64,000 nt of DNA from NCBI RefSeq assembly GCF_054482595.1, contig NZ_CM137008.1; one strand, given 5' to 3'. How positions within the stretch are numbered: position 1 is the stretch's first letter; every line of letters begins with the position of its first letter. The position numbers were made by a program, and so were the translations under genes. Of this stretch, positions 10,526 through 18,473 are shown in pieces. Below the pieces are notes generated by a model that saw nothing but the letters and a program-made list of their open reading frames with translations, was not told the origin of the DNA and made no database searches.

Positions 10526-10936
10526 TTAGATTTTAAGTTTGTCCTGGGCTACAACGACAGGTTTTCCGGATGTGTCGATGACTCCTACCGTCGGTACGCC
10601 ATTTTTGATTTCGAAGAACGGTTTGTTGCTACCTGAGCACAGTTGATTGTCCCCGTATTCAATCATTTGTGCTTTCCCGGTTTTCAGGTTAACTACCGAG
10701 ACAGTGTAGTCGTAGCACCAGGCACCACCACGTTCAAGCACGAAAACATAGCTGTTATCTTTATAGTTGAACTGATTCTTTGTCTGGCAATTCATACCGT
10801 CAATCTCAGTACAGGAAAACGCTTCTGTAGTATTAACGTATTTGATGTTATTTGGCAGTTTTACTTGTTTCGCAGTAGCGAAGACAGAGAACAGAATAGT
10901 TACAGCAACGAGTAAAGTTTTGATAAAAGTTTTCAT
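10526..10936 (-). CDS. Small secreted protein of unknown function (4 Cys)
   Basis: 136 aa, N-terminal signal peptide MKTFIKTLLVAVTILFSVFATA, four cysteines. Confidence 0.6.
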   Translation of the reverse strand: MKTFIKTLLVAVTILFSVFATAKQVKLPNNIKYVNTTEAFSCTEIDGMNCQTKNQFNYKDNSYVFVLERGGAWCYDYTVSVVNLKTGKAQMIEYGDNQLCSGSNKPFFEIKNGVPTVGVIDTSGKPVVVAQDKLKI

Positions 10937-11728: not shown

Positions 11729-11755
11729 GAAAAACACCACCACAGGCGGTGGCGT
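11729..11755 (-). terminator. Putative Rho-independent terminator after patatin gene
   Basis: Stem ccacc / ggtgg with 6-nt loop followed on minus strand by tgttttt. Confidence 0.45.
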
Positions 11756-11770: not shown

Positions 11771-12841
11771 TTATTTAATCCGGGCCATCGCGTTTCTCAG
11801 TGCCAAATCTGCCTCTTCCGTTATATCCAGGCTTTTCTGCAATACCGCCTCTGACCGGGTCAGTGCCTGACGTGCTGCCAGCGGTTTCCGGATATGCTCC
11901 ATCGCCAGCATCGTGTCTTCATAGCCCTGCTGACGCCAGGCGTCGGTATGTGCCGATGTAAAACTGAGCAGACCGCCGCTGTTGCCACCATCACCTGCAT
12001 ATTTCAGCCTTTTCCGGGGACGGATCTCAAGGATTGTGGTGTCCGGAAAAGCCTGGCGATCCCATAAAGAACCGTCACTCAGATGCGTCACAATCACCAT
12101 ATTGCATCCGGCATCGACCAGAGGCGTCACAGGGGTATTTCCCTGCATATTTCGCCATCCTCCCATACCACCATCACCGAACATTGTCCCCTGAACCTCA
12201 CGGGGACGGAACAGCAGGGGCAGCGCGGCTGACGCAAGCAGAGCCTCTTTCTGCTGTCCGCGGGGCAGGCTCTGGATATGCTGAAAAACGGCGTTTTTCG
12301 TGGTTCCGACACCCAGTTCAGCACGAATGCAGTCAATAATATCCTGCATGCCCCCTTCTGTGGGGTACAGCGACACATACAGCGGTAGCCCGTCTGCCAG
12401 AGCATCAGTATCAAGATAATGATCCATCAGCGCTGTCAGGGGCTCATCTGACAACAACGGCTGAGCCATCAGATTGTCAAACCCGTTGATTGTCGATATA
12501 TGGCGAAGAAGCGTCGTAAGCAGTGCTCCTGCACGTCCGGGGATCTGGCAGAGGTTCATTGCCTGGAACAATTTTTTCAGCAATGAAAAGTAAACCAATC
12601 TGTTTACCGACAGCACCTGATTATTCCCCAGATGATCCCAGAGCGCCTCCAGGCGTACGGCAGCTTCTGACAGATCGGGAGAGGCCGCGATAATGGCACC
12701 ATTGAATGCGCCAATGCTGGCCCCTGAAACCATGCTGATCTGTGTACCACACTCTGCCAGTGCCTTAACCACTCCCGCCTGATAAGCGCCCACCGCCCCG
12801 CCACCGGACAGCACCAGCCCCGTTTTCATTTCTGTACTCAT
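11771..12841 (-). CDS. Patatin-like phospholipase
   Basis: GGGAVGAYQAG oxyanion-hole motif, GASIG (GxSxG) nucleophile, DGG motif (FGDGGMGG); start overlaps upstream stop (ATGA). Confidence 0.85.
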   Translation of the reverse strand: MSTEMKTGLVLSGGGAVGAYQAGVVKALAECGTQISMVSGASIGAFNGAIIAASPDLSEAAVRLEALWDHLGNNQVLSVNRLVYFSLLKKLFQAMNLCQIPGRAGALLTTLLRHISTINGFDNLMAQPLLSDEPLTALMDHYLDTDALADGLPLYVSLYPTEGGMQDIIDCIRAELGVGTTKNAVFQHIQSLPRGQQKEALLASAALPLLFRPREVQGTMFGDGGMGGWRNMQGNTPVTPLVDAGCNMVIVTHLSDGSLWDRQAFPDTTILEIRPRKRLKYAGDGGNSGGLLSFTSAHTDAWRQQGYEDTMLAMEHIRKPLAARQALTRSEAVLQKSLDITEEADLALRNAMARIK

Positions 12842-13743
12842 GCAGCCCCCTTCTGAAATATTTCATCGACCATACTTTCAGAGAGGCGTTCTGCAGAGCA
12901 GAGGCGAGGCATGCGAACCGGTAAGTGTTCTGCAGCCTGCGTGGTTGACCAGATCACCGGATGCTGCTCTTCACTGCACCAGTCTCCCAGCCAGTTAATC
13001 GCGTCATGCCACTCGTTATCTGCCTGCTCCCGGCCCTGACCACCAAGCCAGTCCAGAGTGTTCAGACGCACGGTTGCACTACCGCCACTCTCCTGTGCCA
13101 TCTGCGTTAATGCTTTATGTCTGAGAATATCCAGTAGCTGGTTAACCTGGCCTGTTTCGCCCTGACGTATCACATCACCAAACGCGCCCCAGCGAAGCTC
13201 TTCAAGTGCCACATAACAACGTCCGGCAGGGGAAAATGACGCATATCGCCCGGCGCTCCACCATGAGAATATCTGCTCAAGATGTAACTGCGCCCGCTGA
13301 ACCTGGTCAACACGGTGGAGTTTTTCTTCAAGATGATTCAGTTTATGGTGAACCTGATCGGCCAGGGTGAGTAACTGCTCCCGCGTATCTGCGGAATAAT
13401 GCGCCAGCCTGGCTGTATCACTGACCAGTGAACTGACCCTGTCGTTTACCCGGGTAATCGCGTAGTTTGTGGTGGCAAGTGACGTTGTCATCTCCGTCAG
13501 CCAGCGCAGGGACGCCTCAACGCCCTGTGCAAGCGACGCATTGATGGCATTCTGCCGTGCAGCGCCTTCGCCGGTCAGCCCCTCTTTTAAACGCCGGAAG
13601 AACGTGCGCTCTCCGGCCGTGCGGATATGCTCCTGTGCAACATCGATTCCGTTTGCGAAATCAACCACAAATTTTTCAGGAAGACAGGTGAGTACCTGAC
13701 ATACCCGGTTATCAGCAATTTGTTGAATAAATGGTGAAGTCAC
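12838..13743 (-). CDS. Hypothetical coiled-coil protein, middle gene of operon
   Basis: 301 aa, helical/heptad-rich, no recognised domain; ATGA overlaps with both neighbours. Confidence 0.7.
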   Translation of the reverse strand: MTSPFIQQIADNRVCQVLTCLPEKFVVDFANGIDVAQEHIRTAGERTFFRRLKEGLTGEGAARQNAINASLAQGVEASLRWLTEMTTSLATTNYAITRVNDRVSSLVSDTARLAHYSADTREQLLTLADQVHHKLNHLEEKLHRVDQVQRAQLHLEQIFSWWSAGRYASFSPAGRCYVALEELRWGAFGDVIRQGETGQVNQLLDILRHKALTQMAQESGGSATVRLNTLDWLGGQGREQADNEWHDAINWLGDWCSEEQHPVIWSTTQAAEHLPVRMPRLCSAERLSESMVDEIFQKGAA

Positions 13744-16136
13744 AGCATTGTCTCCAGCTCTTCCCTCAGCGCCTTACTGTCAGTAATGAGCTCAGGAACC
13801 CTTTCATTTAATGCCTGAAGTCGCCCGGTAAGTCGTTCCTGCGCCTGCTGATCGCGTTTATGATCCTCAGAGCTCTGAATCAGCGTGTTACGCAGTTGTT
13901 CAACTTTCTCCCTGAATGCGCAGAAAAAGGCATCGATTTCCTGGCGGACGGGCTGGTTAATATCCTGCTCAATGGATGCCTGCAGCTCCCCGAAATATGC
14001 CCGGGTCAGTGACATAACTTCCTCTCTGACCTTGTTGATATTGATCACGCTGCGACTCACATCCTCGTCATAGTTTTCCCAGCCCAGGTCACTGGTGCCA
14101 AACCATCGACAAACGGTTCCCCATACGCCACTCTGCCGACGGCGACGGGTGACGGTCTCCGTTCTTTCCTCCATAAGCGCACTCAGATTTATTTTTACCG
14201 CGAGCCGGGTCTGTAACTGGCTGACTGCCGGAAAACTGATTTTTACGGTAAAGCCCTCATCCTCCAGGCGGGCATTGATGCGACCGGCAATGTTTTCTGT
14301 GGCGTACAGGGCCGTGCCACGAAAACCTGTTTCAATCCCGCTGACGATTTTCTCCAGCTCAGGCCGGAACTGTGCTTCAGCCTCACGGTGCAGGCTGGTC
14401 ACGGTCGATTCGATTTGCGTCATCAGTTCAAGGGCTTCCCTGCGATCACTGAATTTTATTTCGGGGCTGTCCGGGGCAAAATCTCGTTTCCTGTAATCCT
14501 CCCGGCCCTGGTTGTTGATACCGGACCATTGAGAAATTTTCCCCCATAATCCGGACTGAGACCTTCGTTGTTCTGCGTCTTCTTCCTCCAGCATTTGCTG
14601 TTCTTTGCGTTTACCGCTTCTGAAATAGTCATTCAGCTCCTCTTCCAGTGAGGTGCAGACCCCCGTCAGTAATTCCCGGGTTTTAGTATCGATCTCCTCC
14701 ATGGCCATTCTGACATCAGTGGTCATCTGCTCCTGACAGTCCGCGATTTCCCGGATATCCGCAAGCAGGCTGGTGATATGCGACTGCAGTGACTGAATGC
14801 TTTGCTGTAGCCCCTGATGGCGTAACAACAGGTATTCACTGATATTTTCTGCATTCTGCATCAGTTTTGCGGCGGCAGAGTCAACCGCCAGTGCCGCAGC
14901 TCTGGAATGTGAGCTCTGTATGACTTCCGTTATCAGTTGATCGATAAGTGAGCCTTCCCACAGGTCTGTCGCCCCTTCAGTTGCCAGTTCACTGTCTTTA
15001 CAGACGTATTCTTTTTTCATGCAACCGAAGGCACCTCTGATAAAATCATCGACCCAGGCTTCATCAACAGGAAGGGTTCCGTTTTTCCGTAACTCATGAA
15101 GCGCACGGTTAGCCAGGTATGCCTGGCGTGAGGATCCGGGATAAACGCGGGAGGCGGGCAGCACATCGCTGTTCAGCATTGCCGGAACTTTCTGGCGTAC
15201 GGCATCTGCCCCATCGCCATTGCGGTCTTTCTCATCAAATTTATTGACCAGTACAAACAGGCGGCCGGCTGATACGTCAGCAATGGCATTAAGCTCTTTA
15301 CGGACGTCTTCATCCGCTTTTGAGTTCATCTGGGTGTAATCCATCACAGCCAGAACCGCAGAGGCTTTCTGCAGTTGATCCCGCATCATCACTTCCATCT
15401 GCGGTTGTCCGGCCTCATTAGGGCCGGGGGTATCCAGCAGTGTGAGTGTTCCCTGGCATGCATCCATCCCCACCAGATGGCTGAATTCCACGTCGATCAC
15501 CGGCAGTTTCTGCACTTCTGCGTATTCATCAAAAGGAAATTCAGTCCCCATTGCCGCAGCAAGACGAACCAGATCGTTTAACGATGCCAGTCCGGTAAAG
15601 ATTTCCTCCTCCCCGTGGTATTCATTTTTGAGCCAGCCATCATCCGTCAGAATATCCAGCAGTTCGCGGGTATCCCCGGTTTGCTGCAGGGTCTGTGCGA
15701 CCTGCTGTCCTGCCGGGGTGGCGAGTTTTTCCTGCAGTGTGATTAATAAATTGCGGACAGGCTGAATATGTTCCAGATGGAGAACCGGCTCAGTTTTTCC
15801 GGGAACGTGGCGGATGAGCGTCGGTACAGAGGTCATGGGGCGGTTACGGTTAGGCAGAATTTCCTGCCCCACAATGGCATTGATGGTGGTTGATTTGCCT
15901 GCTTTCATCGTGCCGACAACAGCCAGCACCATCTCCCTGCGGGCGGTTTTGATTTGTTCGCCCTCCAGCTCCTCAATTCTTTTCAGTGCTTTCTGTTTAT
16001 CAAAAAGCAGTCTGTTTTCGTTCTTACTGTCAGATAACACATCTGGCTCCTCAACCATTTGCCGGAGCAGATTAATGTTCAGTTGCAAAAGTCGGTCGGC
16101 TTCATCACAAAGCAGGGCGATGTTCTTTTCGTGCAT
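13740..16136 (-). CDS. Dynamin-like GTPase (bacterial dynamin family)
   Basis: 798 aa; G1 GTMKAGKST, G3 DTPG, G4 NKFD, long helical C-terminal region. Confidence 0.85.
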   Translation of the reverse strand: MHEKNIALLCDEADRLLQLNINLLRQMVEEPDVLSDSKNENRLLFDKQKALKRIEELEGEQIKTARREMVLAVVGTMKAGKSTTINAIVGQEILPNRNRPMTSVPTLIRHVPGKTEPVLHLEHIQPVRNLLITLQEKLATPAGQQVAQTLQQTGDTRELLDILTDDGWLKNEYHGEEEIFTGLASLNDLVRLAAAMGTEFPFDEYAEVQKLPVIDVEFSHLVGMDACQGTLTLLDTPGPNEAGQPQMEVMMRDQLQKASAVLAVMDYTQMNSKADEDVRKELNAIADVSAGRLFVLVNKFDEKDRNGDGADAVRQKVPAMLNSDVLPASRVYPGSSRQAYLANRALHELRKNGTLPVDEAWVDDFIRGAFGCMKKEYVCKDSELATEGATDLWEGSLIDQLITEVIQSSHSRAAALAVDSAAAKLMQNAENISEYLLLRHQGLQQSIQSLQSHITSLLADIREIADCQEQMTTDVRMAMEEIDTKTRELLTGVCTSLEEELNDYFRSGKRKEQQMLEEEDAEQRRSQSGLWGKISQWSGINNQGREDYRKRDFAPDSPEIKFSDRREALELMTQIESTVTSLHREAEAQFRPELEKIVSGIETGFRGTALYATENIAGRINARLEDEGFTVKISFPAVSQLQTRLAVKINLSALMEERTETVTRRRRQSGVWGTVCRWFGTSDLGWENYDEDVSRSVININKVREEVMSLTRAYFGELQASIEQDINQPVRQEIDAFFCAFREKVEQLRNTLIQSSEDHKRDQQAQERLTGRLQALNERVPELITDSKALREELETML

Positions 16137-16189: not shown

Positions 16190-16270
16190 CTACAAACGAT
16201 CGTTTATAACGATCGATATGATAGTAACGATCGATGTATTCTATTAACTTGAGAAACACAACGCAAGGGG
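16190..16270 (-). promoter_or_regulatory. Sigma70-like promoter followed by three clustered GATC sites (agn43-type Dam/OxyR switch candidate)
   Basis: On minus strand: -35 TTGCGT, 17-bp spacer, -10 TAGAAT, then GATC at about 16229, 16211 and 16198 within 35 bp; RBS aggaagg before dynamin ATG. Confidence 0.55.
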
Positions 16271-16353: not shown

Positions 16354-17265
16354 TCAGAAGAAAATCCAGTTCCATACCGCGCGGGCAACAGAGACCACCG
16401 AGTCACGGACGGCGCGCAGAACCGTGCGTGCAACAGAGGCAATGCAGACGCTCTCCGCCGTGTCAAATATCCGGTCCACCGCACCGGTAAACTGTTCACG
16501 GGCCTGAGACCGGACAGACTCCGTGCGCAGCTCGTCCTGCAGGCGGGTCATCAGGGGACTGGCGGCATGGTCGGGAAGTGCTGTCATGAGCGCACTGACC
16601 AGCGTATCCAGTTCCCAGCCGGTGCGGGCCGATACGGCAACAACCCGATGTACGGGCCGGAACAGACGGAATACCGCCTCCGTTTTTTCGCGAATGTTCT
16701 GTGCCTGTGCGGGAGAAGGCTGAATACCGGCCATATCCCATTCATGGCAGGGCTCCGTTTTATCGGCCTGCATCACCACAAACAGTACCCGCTGATGTCC
16801 CCGGTGCAGGATGTGTCGCCAGAAATACTCATCCACAGACAGGGCACGGTCATCGGCTTTAATCAGCCACAGTACCAGGTCCAGTTCGGGCAGAATGTCA
16901 CGGTACAGGGCTTCATACTCTGCATCCCTGTCCCGGCTCTCGCCCACCCCGGGCAGGTCAGTGATAACCATGCTGTGACCATGGCCATTCAGACGGAAGC
17001 GCTGCACTTCCCGGGTGCCGGCGTGAACATCACTGACCGGGGTGACCTCCCCCTGAAACAGCGCATTACAGAGTGAGGATTTACCGGCCCCGCTTTTCCC
17101 CATAATGCCAATCACGGGTTCGTGACTGGTGAGTTTGCGCAGATGTTCCAGGATGTGACGGGAAAGTGAGTAAGGCAGGGAGGAGAGCGGTTTTTCGATT
17201 GCCTCAATGGCATCAGACGGATTCATACATGTATTCCCGGTGAAAAAAGACAAAACCCCGCGCAC
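16354..17265 (-). CDS. yeeP: YfjP/YeeP-family GTPase
   Basis: P-loop GIMGKSGAGKSS, DLPG, recognised YfjP/YeeP-like sequence; alternative start at MNPSD (17226). Confidence 0.8.
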   Translation of the reverse strand: MRGVLSFFTGNTCMNPSDAIEAIEKPLSSLPYSLSRHILEHLRKLTSHEPVIGIMGKSGAGKSSLCNALFQGEVTPVSDVHAGTREVQRFRLNGHGHSMVITDLPGVGESRDRDAEYEALYRDILPELDLVLWLIKADDRALSVDEYFWRHILHRGHQRVLFVVMQADKTEPCHEWDMAGIQPSPAQAQNIREKTEAVFRLFRPVHRVVAVSARTGWELDTLVSALMTALPDHAASPLMTRLQDELRTESVRSQAREQFTGAVDRIFDTAESVCIASVARTVLRAVRDSVVSVARAVWNWIFF

Positions 17266-17309: not shown

Positions 17310-18473
17310 TTATCTGGAATCGATTTGGCTGTTCTGCCTGGTTGCCACCAAATCATGGTACGCCTGCTCAATCATTTCATTCAGCAGTTTTTTTGGGAGG
17401 ACACCACGACTTCGGGCAATACTTTCAAGCTGTTTGTGGATTTTTCCGGACAGTTTCAGAGGGACGGAACCATCAGCACGTTCATCACGCCTTTTTTGTT
17501 GCTCCCGGGCACTTTTCAGCTCATCAAGAAGAATCGCTTTATGCTGAATCCTGGGGGCCTGGAAGGAGACCTGCGTAAACTTCGCTCTGTTCCGTCTGGG
17601 ATTACTTTCCAGTAAAAACTGTACCTGTTGCTCATTCCAGCCCTCCCAGTTATCAAACGTGGCGCAGGCAAACCAGTATTTCTGCTCCGGGGTAAGGGGA
17701 TTCAGCGGGGTTCCCACACACCGGACCTGCATGGCGTTCCATAACCAGTCACACTGTTCACTGTCCCTGCTGTCCACCCACGAAAAGGGGGAGGGGTAAT
17801 CATTGTTTATGCTGGCCCATTCAGAGAATACTGAGTTGATAATCGTCCTCGTAGCCTCTGGTCCGGATTTCAGCAGGTAACTGGAGCAGAACCATATAAT
17901 TTCACGGTAGATTTTATCCGGATGCACGGTGCGCATCGGCTTTTCTCTGGGACCGGCAATCTTCGGTTGCGATGGAAACCCCGTGGCAAACCGCAGATGT
18001 TCCGGGGGCATTCCTGAACGTTTTTCAGGAATGGGTGTGAGTCCTGCGTTTCTGGTCTTTTCCGCTTGTCCGGTATTGCCTCCGGCCGGAGTGTTGTCGG
18101 GAGTATCTTCCGGAGGCGAGGTGTTTTCATTAGTTGGGGGAACAACAGCAGAACTGTCCATCTCCGGAATGGGTTGAGGGGCATAATCACTGTGGTAGCC
18201 AGGGGAAAGCGTTAAGTCCCGAAGGGTGACATCAGGTTCCGGGCAGTGAGTGCCACCGGGAGTGAACGGGAGTTGTTGCTTTTGGGAGAAAAATGTATTG
18301 TGAATGCGGGTATACAGCTGGAACAGAAAAAAATAAGATGCCCGTGGTTCTTTTTTTAACCACTGTGTATATTCCTCTATGGCACCGAGCTGTTGTTTGT
18401 GCCGTTTTACAGCATCGATATACGGACAGCTGGTGCAGATATCATCCAGTTCCTTTCCCACAATACACCTCAC
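17310..18473 (-). CDS. Hypothetical protein with Pro/Thr-rich low-complexity linker
   Basis: 387 aa ORF upstream of GTPase on same strand; central stretch PPTNENTSPPEDTPDNTPAGGNTGQ; no recognised domain. Confidence 0.55.
   Translation of the reverse strand: MRCIVGKELDDICTSCPYIDAVKRHKQQLGAIEEYTQWLKKEPRASYFFLFQLYTRIHNTFFSQKQQLPFTPGGTHCPEPDVTLRDLTLSPGYHSDYAPQPIPEMDSSAVVPPTNENTSPPEDTPDNTPAGGNTGQAEKTRNAGLTPIPEKRSGMPPEHLRFATGFPSQPKIAGPREKPMRTVHPDKIYREIIWFCSSYLLKSGPEATRTIINSVFSEWASINNDYPSPFSWVDSRDSEQCDWLWNAMQVRCVGTPLNPLTPEQKYWFACATFDNWEGWNEQQVQFLLESNPRRNRAKFTQVSFQAPRIQHKAILLDELKSAREQQKRRDERADGSVPLKLSGKIHKQLESIARSRGVLPKKLLNEMIEQAYHDLVATRQNSQIDSR

Follow-up and report, generated by a model that had tools for sequence, protein, structure and literature searches.

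The closest characterized relatives of the locus described here are the Escherichia coli proteins RdcA (YjdA/CrfC) and RdcB (YjcZ). As a soluble dynamin-like GTPase, RdcA forms dimers, binds RdcB, and attaches to the diguanylate cyclase DgcE at the MASE1 domain of the latter (PMC6510439). It activates DgcE only if it is hydrolysis-competent and in the GTP-free state, and it was proposed to sense a drop in the GTP pool (PMC6510439). A stretch of 64,000 nucleotides (nt) of contig NZ_CM137008.1 (NCBI RefSeq assembly GCF_054482595.1), hereafter the window, carries three adjoining genes that encode a dynamin-like GTPase (gene 1), a YjcZ/RdcB-family protein (gene 2), and a patatin-like phospholipase (gene 3), together called the trio. 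Because gene 2 carries the YjcZ/RdcB domain and the homology is full-length, genes 1 and 2 are, by sequence comparison, paralogues of RdcA and RdcB. This kinship, overlooked when the window was previously annotated by a model from its letters (the sequence-only reading), is the main key to a possible mechanism. The trio has about an even chance of being a nucleotide-state GTPase switch that gates an intracellular phospholipase, probably for abortive-infection-type defence.

Other described systems share parts of this composition. Eleos is made up of two or three dynamin-like proteins in tandem, LeoA and LeoBC (Millman et al. 2022, as summarized in PMC12922286). It resembles the trio in having a bacterial dynamin-like GTPase, an island location, and a connection, whether proposed or demonstrated, with phage defence, but it features neither a lipase nor a YjcZ protein, whereas the trio has a single dynamin-like protein. 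Furthermore, the trio matches LeoBC over only 61 residues (29-89; E = 8.6e-5) and LeoA not at all. With a second dynamin absent from the operon and the LeoA structure ranked 36th in the fold search with gene 1, the original view that this locus is not Eleos holds.

The cyclic-oligonucleotide-based antiphage signalling system (CBASS) with the effector CapV is similar in another respect, in that both would use an intracellular patatin-like phospholipase, inactive until signalled, as the likely killing or arrest effector. However, no CD-NTase (cGAS/DncV-like nucleotidyltransferase) is present in the operon or its annotated neighbours, and the trio contains no cyclic-nucleotide sensing domain. Its control would come from a protein GTPase switch rather than from a nucleotide second messenger. 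Gene 3 scores 18.3 bits against the NCBIfam CBASS_lipase model (cutoff 200).

Kinship with RdcA and RdcB

Gene 2 matches the Pfam YjcZ family (PF13990, 3.2e-70) over residues 26-296 and is 30% identical to K-12 RdcB (b4110), which overturns the first description of it as a protein with no recognisable domain. Its AlphaFold2 (AF2) model, made like that of gene 1 as a single chain with family alignments, has a predicted local distance difference test score (pLDDT) of 79.6 and a predicted template modelling score (pTM) of 0.82. Gene 1 aligns with K-12 RdcA (b4109) in BLASTP at 33% identity over 744 amino acids (aa; E = 9e-121), and with the NCBIfam CrfC model NF007368 over residues 1-797 (E = 1e-166). 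Its score of 556 bits lies below the equivalog cutoff of 1146, and gene 1 is therefore predicted to be a paralogue of RdcA rather than its orthologue. A Pfam Dynamin_N match (1.6e-17) accompanies the GTPase motifs G1 (G75-TMKAGKS-T83), G2 (T102), G3 (D235-TPG), and G4 (N298-KFD), all of them invariant in 48 members of the gene 1 family.

The two pairs are built alike. In each, a YjcZ-family gene overlaps the end of the gene for a dynamin-like GTPase of ~750-800 aa, both GTPases are reported or predicted to be soluble and are homologous along their full length, and the G-motifs are common to both, with K82 and T103 of RdcA corresponding to K81 and T102 of the trio GTPase. They differ in that a patatin gene is always attached in the trio, whereas none occurs within 10 kb of the core rdcAB loci (~50, all in Enterobacteriaceae). 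The trio is found on mobile elements, whereas K-12 rdcAB occupies the core yjdN-yjdM/proP locus, between yjdM and proP. Also, no tie of the trio to DgcE or to the flagellar (FlhDC/FliA) regulon is known.

These differences bear on the possibility that the trio is a second RdcA/RdcB-type input to cyclic di-GMP or other signalling, in which the pair would dock on a MASE1-type sensor and the patatin would be an accessory. The full-length homology is in line with such a role, as is the name that RefSeq gives gene 2, "diguanylate cyclase regulator RdcB family". However, identity to the K-12 pair is only 30-33%, the trio proteins form a separate clade with the GTPase under the equivalog cutoff, and E. 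coli carries the core rdcAB besides the trio. The trio also reaches far beyond Enterobacteriaceae, the sole hosts of the sampled core pairs, and its invariant link is to a lipase and not to a cyclase. A signalling input of this type is thus quite improbable.

Inheritance and spread of the three genes

A profile search with gene 2 against 1.84 billion representatives of clusters at 50% identity returned only 492 clusters, nearly all of them stand-alone proteins of ~300 aa. A scan of one genome per species gave 78 loci, which tblastn and open reading frame (ORF) analysis divided cleanly into those with and those without the lipase. The lipase-bearing loci comprise 26 distinct ones from the scan and eight added through protein look-ups, about 34 altogether, all with the order dynamin, YjcZ, patatin and with overlaps that are mostly -1, -4, or -8. 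All of the ~34 loci that fall into the window's YjcZ clade and have downstream DNA carry the patatin gene directly next. Among Enterobacterales, the hosts are Escherichia (including E. albertii), Pantoea, Erwinia, Budvicia, Pectobacterium, Yersinia, Klebsiella, and Morganella. Other Gamma- and Betaproteobacterial hosts include at least eight Pseudomonas, the Chromatiaceae Thiodictyon and Allochromatium, Methylomonas, and Gallionella, and further hosts are Macromonas, Aquaspirillum, Comamonadaceae, Paenacidovorax, and Yanghanlia, among others. Conserved co-occurrence in other genomes, which the sequence-only reading had named as a check on its proposal, is therefore observed in several genera with the gene order retained.

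Neighbour-joining analysis of the middle protein places the lipase-bearing and lipase-less classes in separate clades, and the sole apparent exception is a contig that ends within the lipase gene. The catalytic motifs of both the GTPase and the lipase are invariant in the trio class. Pairwise distance matrices of the three proteins correlate with r = 0.84-0.86, as opposed to at most 0.23 after label permutation. The trio arrangement is far beyond chance. This combination of synteny and co-evolution indicates that the trio is one evolutionary unit, and by inference one functional unit.

In locus L081 (Methylomonas koyamae), and also in L082, a 99-aa ORF without a Pfam match lies between the dynamin and YjcZ genes (positions 9617-9916 of L081), the only case seen of an interrupted first junction. 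Two further loci, L016 and L017, agree exactly in the match statistics of their YjcZ and patatin genes and seem to be a single locus, recovered once in a metagenome-assembled genome labelled Gammaproteobacteria and once in one labelled Syntrophomonadaceae. This duplication is most likely a binning artefact.

Chimeric or truncated operon products, such as a dynamin N-terminus joined to a YjcZ C-terminus or a YjcZ-patatin product, are present in many E. coli assemblies (proteins P0003, P0012, P0016, P0020, P0055, P0056, and P0167), which shows that the operon suffers internal deletions or frameshifts with some frequency in this species. Rosetta-stone fusions of YjcZ with patatin or dynamin were considered and rejected, as the longer matches are E. 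coli deletion or frameshift chimeras of this kind or have unrelated N-termini.

The sequence-only reading regarded the trio as mobile cargo, and this is supported by its occurrence on islands, in an integrase element, and on a plasmid between insertion sequences (IS). The trio lies at differing positions in CP4-like islands of E. coli, Budvicia, Pectobacterium, and Morganella, and in P. aestuarii it sits in an integrase/DUF927 island. Plasmid records that contain it number 44, and one of these is an IncFII plasmid of K. pneumoniae on which IS1 and IS30 flank the trio. In Allochromatium, Uma2 and Fic genes accompany the trio at its insertion site between ileS and lspA. A tblastn search of the trio against 50,697 phage records gave no match, and the cassette is therefore not phage-borne. 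Of 5426 complete E. coli genomes, 2444 contain at least 80% of the 4.65-kb query, and a single genome may have as many as five matching places. Mobility and patchy distribution fit what is expected of defence cargo.

Mobility is also the basis for regarding the trio as an addiction module of mobile genetic elements (MGEs), wherein the lipase would be a latent toxin restrained by the GTPase and its partner, and loss of the element would lead to post-segregational killing. In Enterobacterales, the trio is always on or adjoins MGEs, close to CbtA/CbeA toxin-antitoxin genes, it occurs on plasmids, and its intracellular lipase is tightly coupled to the genes upstream. However, no known antitoxin comes near the complexity of an 800-aa GTPase with a 300-aa partner, and the Yersinia, Klebsiella, and Methylomonas loci have no MGE context. 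The mechanism would also largely overlap with that of abortive infection. Addiction as the function of the trio is considered improbable.

Returning to the GTPase switch in abortive-infection-type defence, the genes that surround the trio offer further indications. A regulator with helix-turn-helix (HTH), WYL, and WCX domains lies directly upstream, in the same or divergent direction, in 10 of the ~34 trio loci, and no WYL regulator is present inside the window. WYL-type regulators are of the same type as CapW, which accompanies CBASS, and BrxR, which accompanies the bacteriophage exclusion (BREX) system. The 30 nearest ORFs at each of nine non-enterobacterial loci were scanned with PADLOC. 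A JukA homologue was found 48 nt downstream of the trio at L014, a MADS-like gene near it at L015, a type I restriction-modification methylase with an S subunit at L020, and a PDC-S24/Fic gene with a DEDDh/PDC-S48-like gene at L033, while three of the nine gave no match. An RTasPolA match at L018 was discounted, as it is probably the housekeeping PolA. Counting the Uma2 and Fic genes of Allochromatium, immediate neighbours of a known or candidate defence type occur in about five of ten non-enterobacterial loci, a small sample without a background control. This neighbourhood is suggestive, as guilt by association.

The distribution of regulators and of the two classes also points to the origin of the core pair. 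In the GTPase tree, with midpoint rooting, the pair clade is monophyletic and the trio class is not. The basal pairs (L024-L029; Cedecea and Enterobacter spp.) stand next to yjdN as in K-12, and directly upstream of them lies a 238-aa gene with HTH and WCX domains (e.g., 6788-7501 in L027), a degenerate WYL-type regulator. Since the trio occurs in Beta- and Gammaproteobacteria and the pair is confined to Enterobacteriaceae, and since the basal pairs keep a degenerate regulator, these data fit a scheme in which core RdcAB would be the derived form, descended from a mobile, WYL-regulated trio by loss of the lipase.

A putative GTPase switch for an intracellular lipase

The AF2 model of gene 1 (pLDDT 78, pTM 0.64) features a G domain and a long helical stalk. 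In the model, the tip of the stalk is formed by residues 528-565 and 627-700 and consists of a beta-hairpin and Trp-rich loops, in which W684, G685, W686, and Y689 are almost invariant through the family. The best Foldseek match is BDLP (2j69, 2e-12), followed by SynDLP, IniA, and mitofusins (prob 1.00), and the predicted fold thus falls firmly within the bacterial dynamin-like protein/mitofusin group. While BDLP, SynDLP, IniA, and DynA share the G domain and long helical stalk with gene 1, and this group supplies its best structural matches, gene 1 shows no recognizable hydrophobic paddle or transmembrane (TM) anchor and has the tip described above instead. It also invariably occurs with a YjcZ protein and a lipase. 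No hydrophobic 19-mer above a Kyte-Doolittle value of 1.2 is found in gene 1. Calling it a membrane-remodelling GTPase, as was done at first, was an assumption: the fold is of the BDLP type, but the protein has no hydrophobic segment and its paralogue RdcA is reported to be a soluble regulator.

Membrane activity of gene 1 would be central if the trio were a membrane stress, repair, or vesiculation module, in which the dynamin would tether or remodel damaged inner membrane and the patatin would supply lysolipids and fatty acids for fusion, fission, or vesicle release. Tethering or remodelling of damaged inner membrane has been reported for B. subtilis DynA and for LeoABC of enterotoxigenic E. 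coli, according to the summary in PMC12922286, and this literature favours such a module along with the BDLP-type fold. The partly conserved Trp-rich tip (W684-G-W686, Y689) could touch the membrane, several loci lie in ordinary chromosomal surroundings, and the trio is highly prevalent and intact in E. coli. On the other hand, no hydrophobic paddle or TM segment is recognizable, the closest characterized relative is soluble and regulatory, and horizontal spread on islands and plasmids beside WYL and defence genes would be unusual for homeostasis. A repair or vesiculation role is accordingly rather unlikely.

Gene 3 matches Pfam Patatin (7.4e-24) and contains the oxyanion motif G13GGAVG, the nucleophile motif G40-A-S42-I-G, and D223-GG, which are conserved in 29 orthologues. 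It is thus a predicted patatin-like phospholipase. Both motifs and Pfam matches agree with the initial description of an intact GTPase (G1, G3, and G4) and an intact lipase (GxSxG and DGG). The closest solved relatives of gene 3 are PlpD, VipD, and ExoU, with the N-terminal part alone being matched. A sequence scan of genes 1-3 found no signal peptide and no TM-like hydrophobic segment, and the lipase is therefore expected to act within the producer cell.

In principle, gene 3 could instead be an exported virulence or antibacterial lipase of the ExoU, VipD, PlpD, or Tle-like kind, with genes 1 and 2 as chaperones or secretion adaptors. Its nearest solved sequence relatives are of that kind, and in some strains the cassette is located on "pathogenicity islands" (PMC12922286; PMC13182975). 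However, similarity to the secreted lipases is limited to the N-terminal catalytic motif, gene 3 lacks both a signal peptide and an autotransporter domain, and no genes of a secretion system adjoin it. The trio is also found in free-living Gallionella, Allochromatium, and Methylomonas. Export of the lipase is therefore highly improbable.

For a lipase that is gated by a GTPase inside the cell, VipD serves as a precedent. VipD is a patatin-like phospholipase A1 that is allosterically switched on by binding the GTP-bound GTPase Rab5. A GTPase-gated patatin is thus plausible, given this precedent and the place of VipD among the nearest solved relatives of gene 3. Dependence of a patatin-fold lipase on GTPase binding would be common to both, although VipD is secreted and activated by a small GTPase of the host, whereas the trio encodes its lipase and a large GTPase together and would act in the producer cell.

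In the proposed mechanism, the products of genes 1 and 2 would bind each other in the manner of their paralogues RdcA and RdcB, and the resulting complex would serve as a nucleotide-state switch whose client is the co-translated cytoplasmic patatin and not DgcE. In the resting state, the lipase would be inactive or kept off the membrane. A trigger would then alter the nucleotide state or the oligomerization of the GTPase, with collapse of the GTP pool, or perturbation of membrane or DNA by phage infection or other MGE-related stress, as candidates. The GTPase would thereby activate the lipase or deliver it to the inner membrane, and the hydrolysis of phospholipids would arrest or kill the cell, an abortive-infection-type defence with an outcome like that of CapV in CBASS. 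Partner binding and nucleotide-dependent control of a client are carried over by analogy from the paralogues (PMC6510439); the patatin as the client, the type of trigger, and phage defence as the outcome are our own inferences.

Several observations weigh against this mechanism. Being intact in nearly half of E. coli, and sometimes multicopy, the trio would also fit a non-lethal, housekeeping-like role. The survey of neighbours covers few loci and lacks a formal control for background, and ordinary neighbours without a defence or MGE context surround the trio in Yersinia (ars genes), Klebsiella, and Methylomonas, as well as at L013, L003, and L005. The profile-match listing contains no natural YjcZ-patatin fusion that would be a sign of physical contact. 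Lastly, no other effector takes the place of the patatin among the sampled loci, so that the swapping typical of many defence families is unseen.

Published knowledge of the trio is sparse. PADLOC v2.0.0 (2023) has no model for it and, apart from the LeoBC match, gives a weak match to a generic phospholipase effector (1e-4); searches of PADLOC, NCBIfam, and Pfam for a named system yielded family-level matches only. An RNA-seq study of E. coli MP1 described homologous operons on two islands, labelled "dynamin family / RdcB family / phospholipase", and ranked them with the genes that Kapi1 lysogens induce most strongly (PMC12922286, BMC Genomics 2026). Its authors considered the operons putative defence systems and stated that they could find no publication connecting phospholipases with bacterial dynamins (PMC12922286). 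In the literature searched, this is the only published work that treats the trio as a unit, and a second paper lists the trio genes on an island without experiment (PMC13182975). The composition is thus not undescribed, as had been supposed: genes 1 and 2 belong to the studied RdcA/RdcB family, RefSeq names all three genes, and the operon has been flagged before. As to the suggested abortive-infection pair, a conserved mobile unit with WYL and defence neighbours is borne out, but no functional test or phenotype of the trio, defence included, was found in the full-text literature, in which subscription journals were covered in part. The trio is a genuine conserved system and, on circumstantial grounds, a good, but not wholly new, phage-defence candidate.

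A bolder version of this proposal is possible but doubtful. The trio would represent a new anti-phage or abortive-infection class, in which the GTPase and an RdcB-like adaptor read the guanine-nucleotide or membrane state and unleash the patatin on the cell's own inner membrane, and RdcA/RdcB would be its domesticated, effector-less descendant. If the GTPase-switch mechanism holds, bacterial dynamin-like proteins would gain a concrete job, that of a GTP-state switch licensing a lipase. A defence or abortive-infection architecture that detection tools such as PADLOC 2023 do not flag would be added. Its cassette occurs in close to half of the complete E. coli genomes, the type strain and O157 lineages among them, as well as on Klebsiella and Enterobacter plasmids, which is relevant to host range in phage therapy. 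The debated RdcA/CrfC, seen as a c-di-GMP regulator or as a replication-fork factor, would become a domesticated relative of a conflict system, and the trio would suggest its ancestral client and signal. The system is tractable, with three genes in 4.4 kb, a cultivable host, and clear residues for mutation (K81, T102, and S42).

Locus architecture and island neighbours

An ORF scan of the window recovered the three minus-strand genes at the positions first given for them (Table 1). Each of the three starts is preceded by a Shine-Dalgarno-like purine run, and each junction is a 4-nt overlap. Both overlaps had been reported as ATGA, which is correct for the second; the first is GTGA because gene 2 begins with GTG.

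Table 1. Positions of the trio, its putative regulatory signals, and neighbouring genes in the window
Feature	Position	Strand	Remarks
Gene 1, bacterial dynamin-like GTPase, 798 aa	13740..16136	-	Predicted RdcA/YjdA/CrfC paralogue
Gene 2, YjcZ/RdcB-family all-helical partner, 301 aa	12838..13743	-	GTG start, GTGA overlap with gene 1
Gene 3, predicted cytoplasmic patatin-like phospholipase, 356 aa	11771..12841	-	ATGA overlap with gene 2
Sigma-70-like promoter match (TTAATA, 18-nt spacer, TATCAT)	16218..16247	-	9/12 consensus
Terminator-like hairpin, 7 bp (5 G-C pairs) and T-run	11735..11751	-	20 nt past the patatin stop codon
Palindromic AACGATCG(T/A)T motif, 3 copies	16194..16235	no strand	Overlaps the -10 of the promoter-like site
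Small gene, signal-peptide-like N-terminus and a second internal such segment, 228 aa	10952-11638	-	
Small gene, signal-peptide-like N-terminus	10526-10936	-	
yeeP-like GTPase, intact	16354-17229	-	Pseudogene in K-12

The trio had also been credited with its own promoter and terminator. Consensus matches and a hairpin are present, and the promoter-like match is the sole one within the 217-nt gap upstream of gene 1, but such matches are not above chance, with five 9/12 sigma-70-like sites found across the scanned stretch and 6.1 expected. The predicted terminator hairpin 3' of gene 3 may be leaky; a five-gene co-induced cluster is reported in E. coli MP1 (PMC12922286).

The palindromic AACGATCG(T/A)T motif has five strand-wise matches in the 64-kb window versus 0.25 expected, a number equalled in none of 100 shuffles. 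The repeats are possibly a candidate operator of some repressor, and this putative operator might be related to the induction in Kapi1 lysogens. They are kept in E. albertii and missing upstream of the trio in every other genus, and were thus rejected as a conserved feature of the trio, being specific to Escherichia.

The 4.65-kb stretch with the trio is 100% identical to E. coli XH990, in which the gene order is cobU, IS debris, a hypothetical gene, the yeeP-like GTPase, dynamin, RdcB family, patatin, two hypothetical genes, and DUF932, followed by antirestriction, yeeS/radC, yeeT, cbeA, cbtA, yeeW, yeeA, and sbmC. The same CP4-44 slot in K-12, which lacks the trio, holds yeeP (pseudogene)-isrC-flu-yeeR-yeeS. 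Since the content of the slot differs in K-12, its description as a variable cargo slot is correct, and the order in XH990, the cobU...yeeA site, and the K-12 comparison all agree with the CP4-44-type position that had been claimed.

The two small genes downstream of the lipase have no NCBIfam or PADLOC match, and the 228-aa one also has no Pfam match. In 1857 E. coli genomes, they come directly after the lipase, but they also occur apart from it and were not found near the trio outside Escherichia. The yeeP-like GTPase has weak PADLOC matches to LeoBC (8.7e-9, 33 bits) and LeoA (1.9e-4, 19 bits). It belongs to the backbone of CP4-like islands, also in Budvicia, Pectobacterium, and Morganella, and elsewhere is not tied to the trio. 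These three genes were considered as parts of the system and rejected, as they are missing beside the trio outside Escherichia and the CP4-like islands and are separable from it in E. coli.

Upstream of the yeeP-like GTPase lies a 383-aa ORF (17313-18461, minus strand) with no Pfam, NCBIfam, or PADLOC match, an orphan island gene annotated as hypothetical. In an evolution study of E. coli ATCC 25922, a table lists 122, 75, and 10 "mutations" in crfC, rssA, and yeeP, respectively (PMC7696260). These counts are implausibly high and probably reflect mis-mapping of reads among multi-copy island paralogues of this operon rather than selection.

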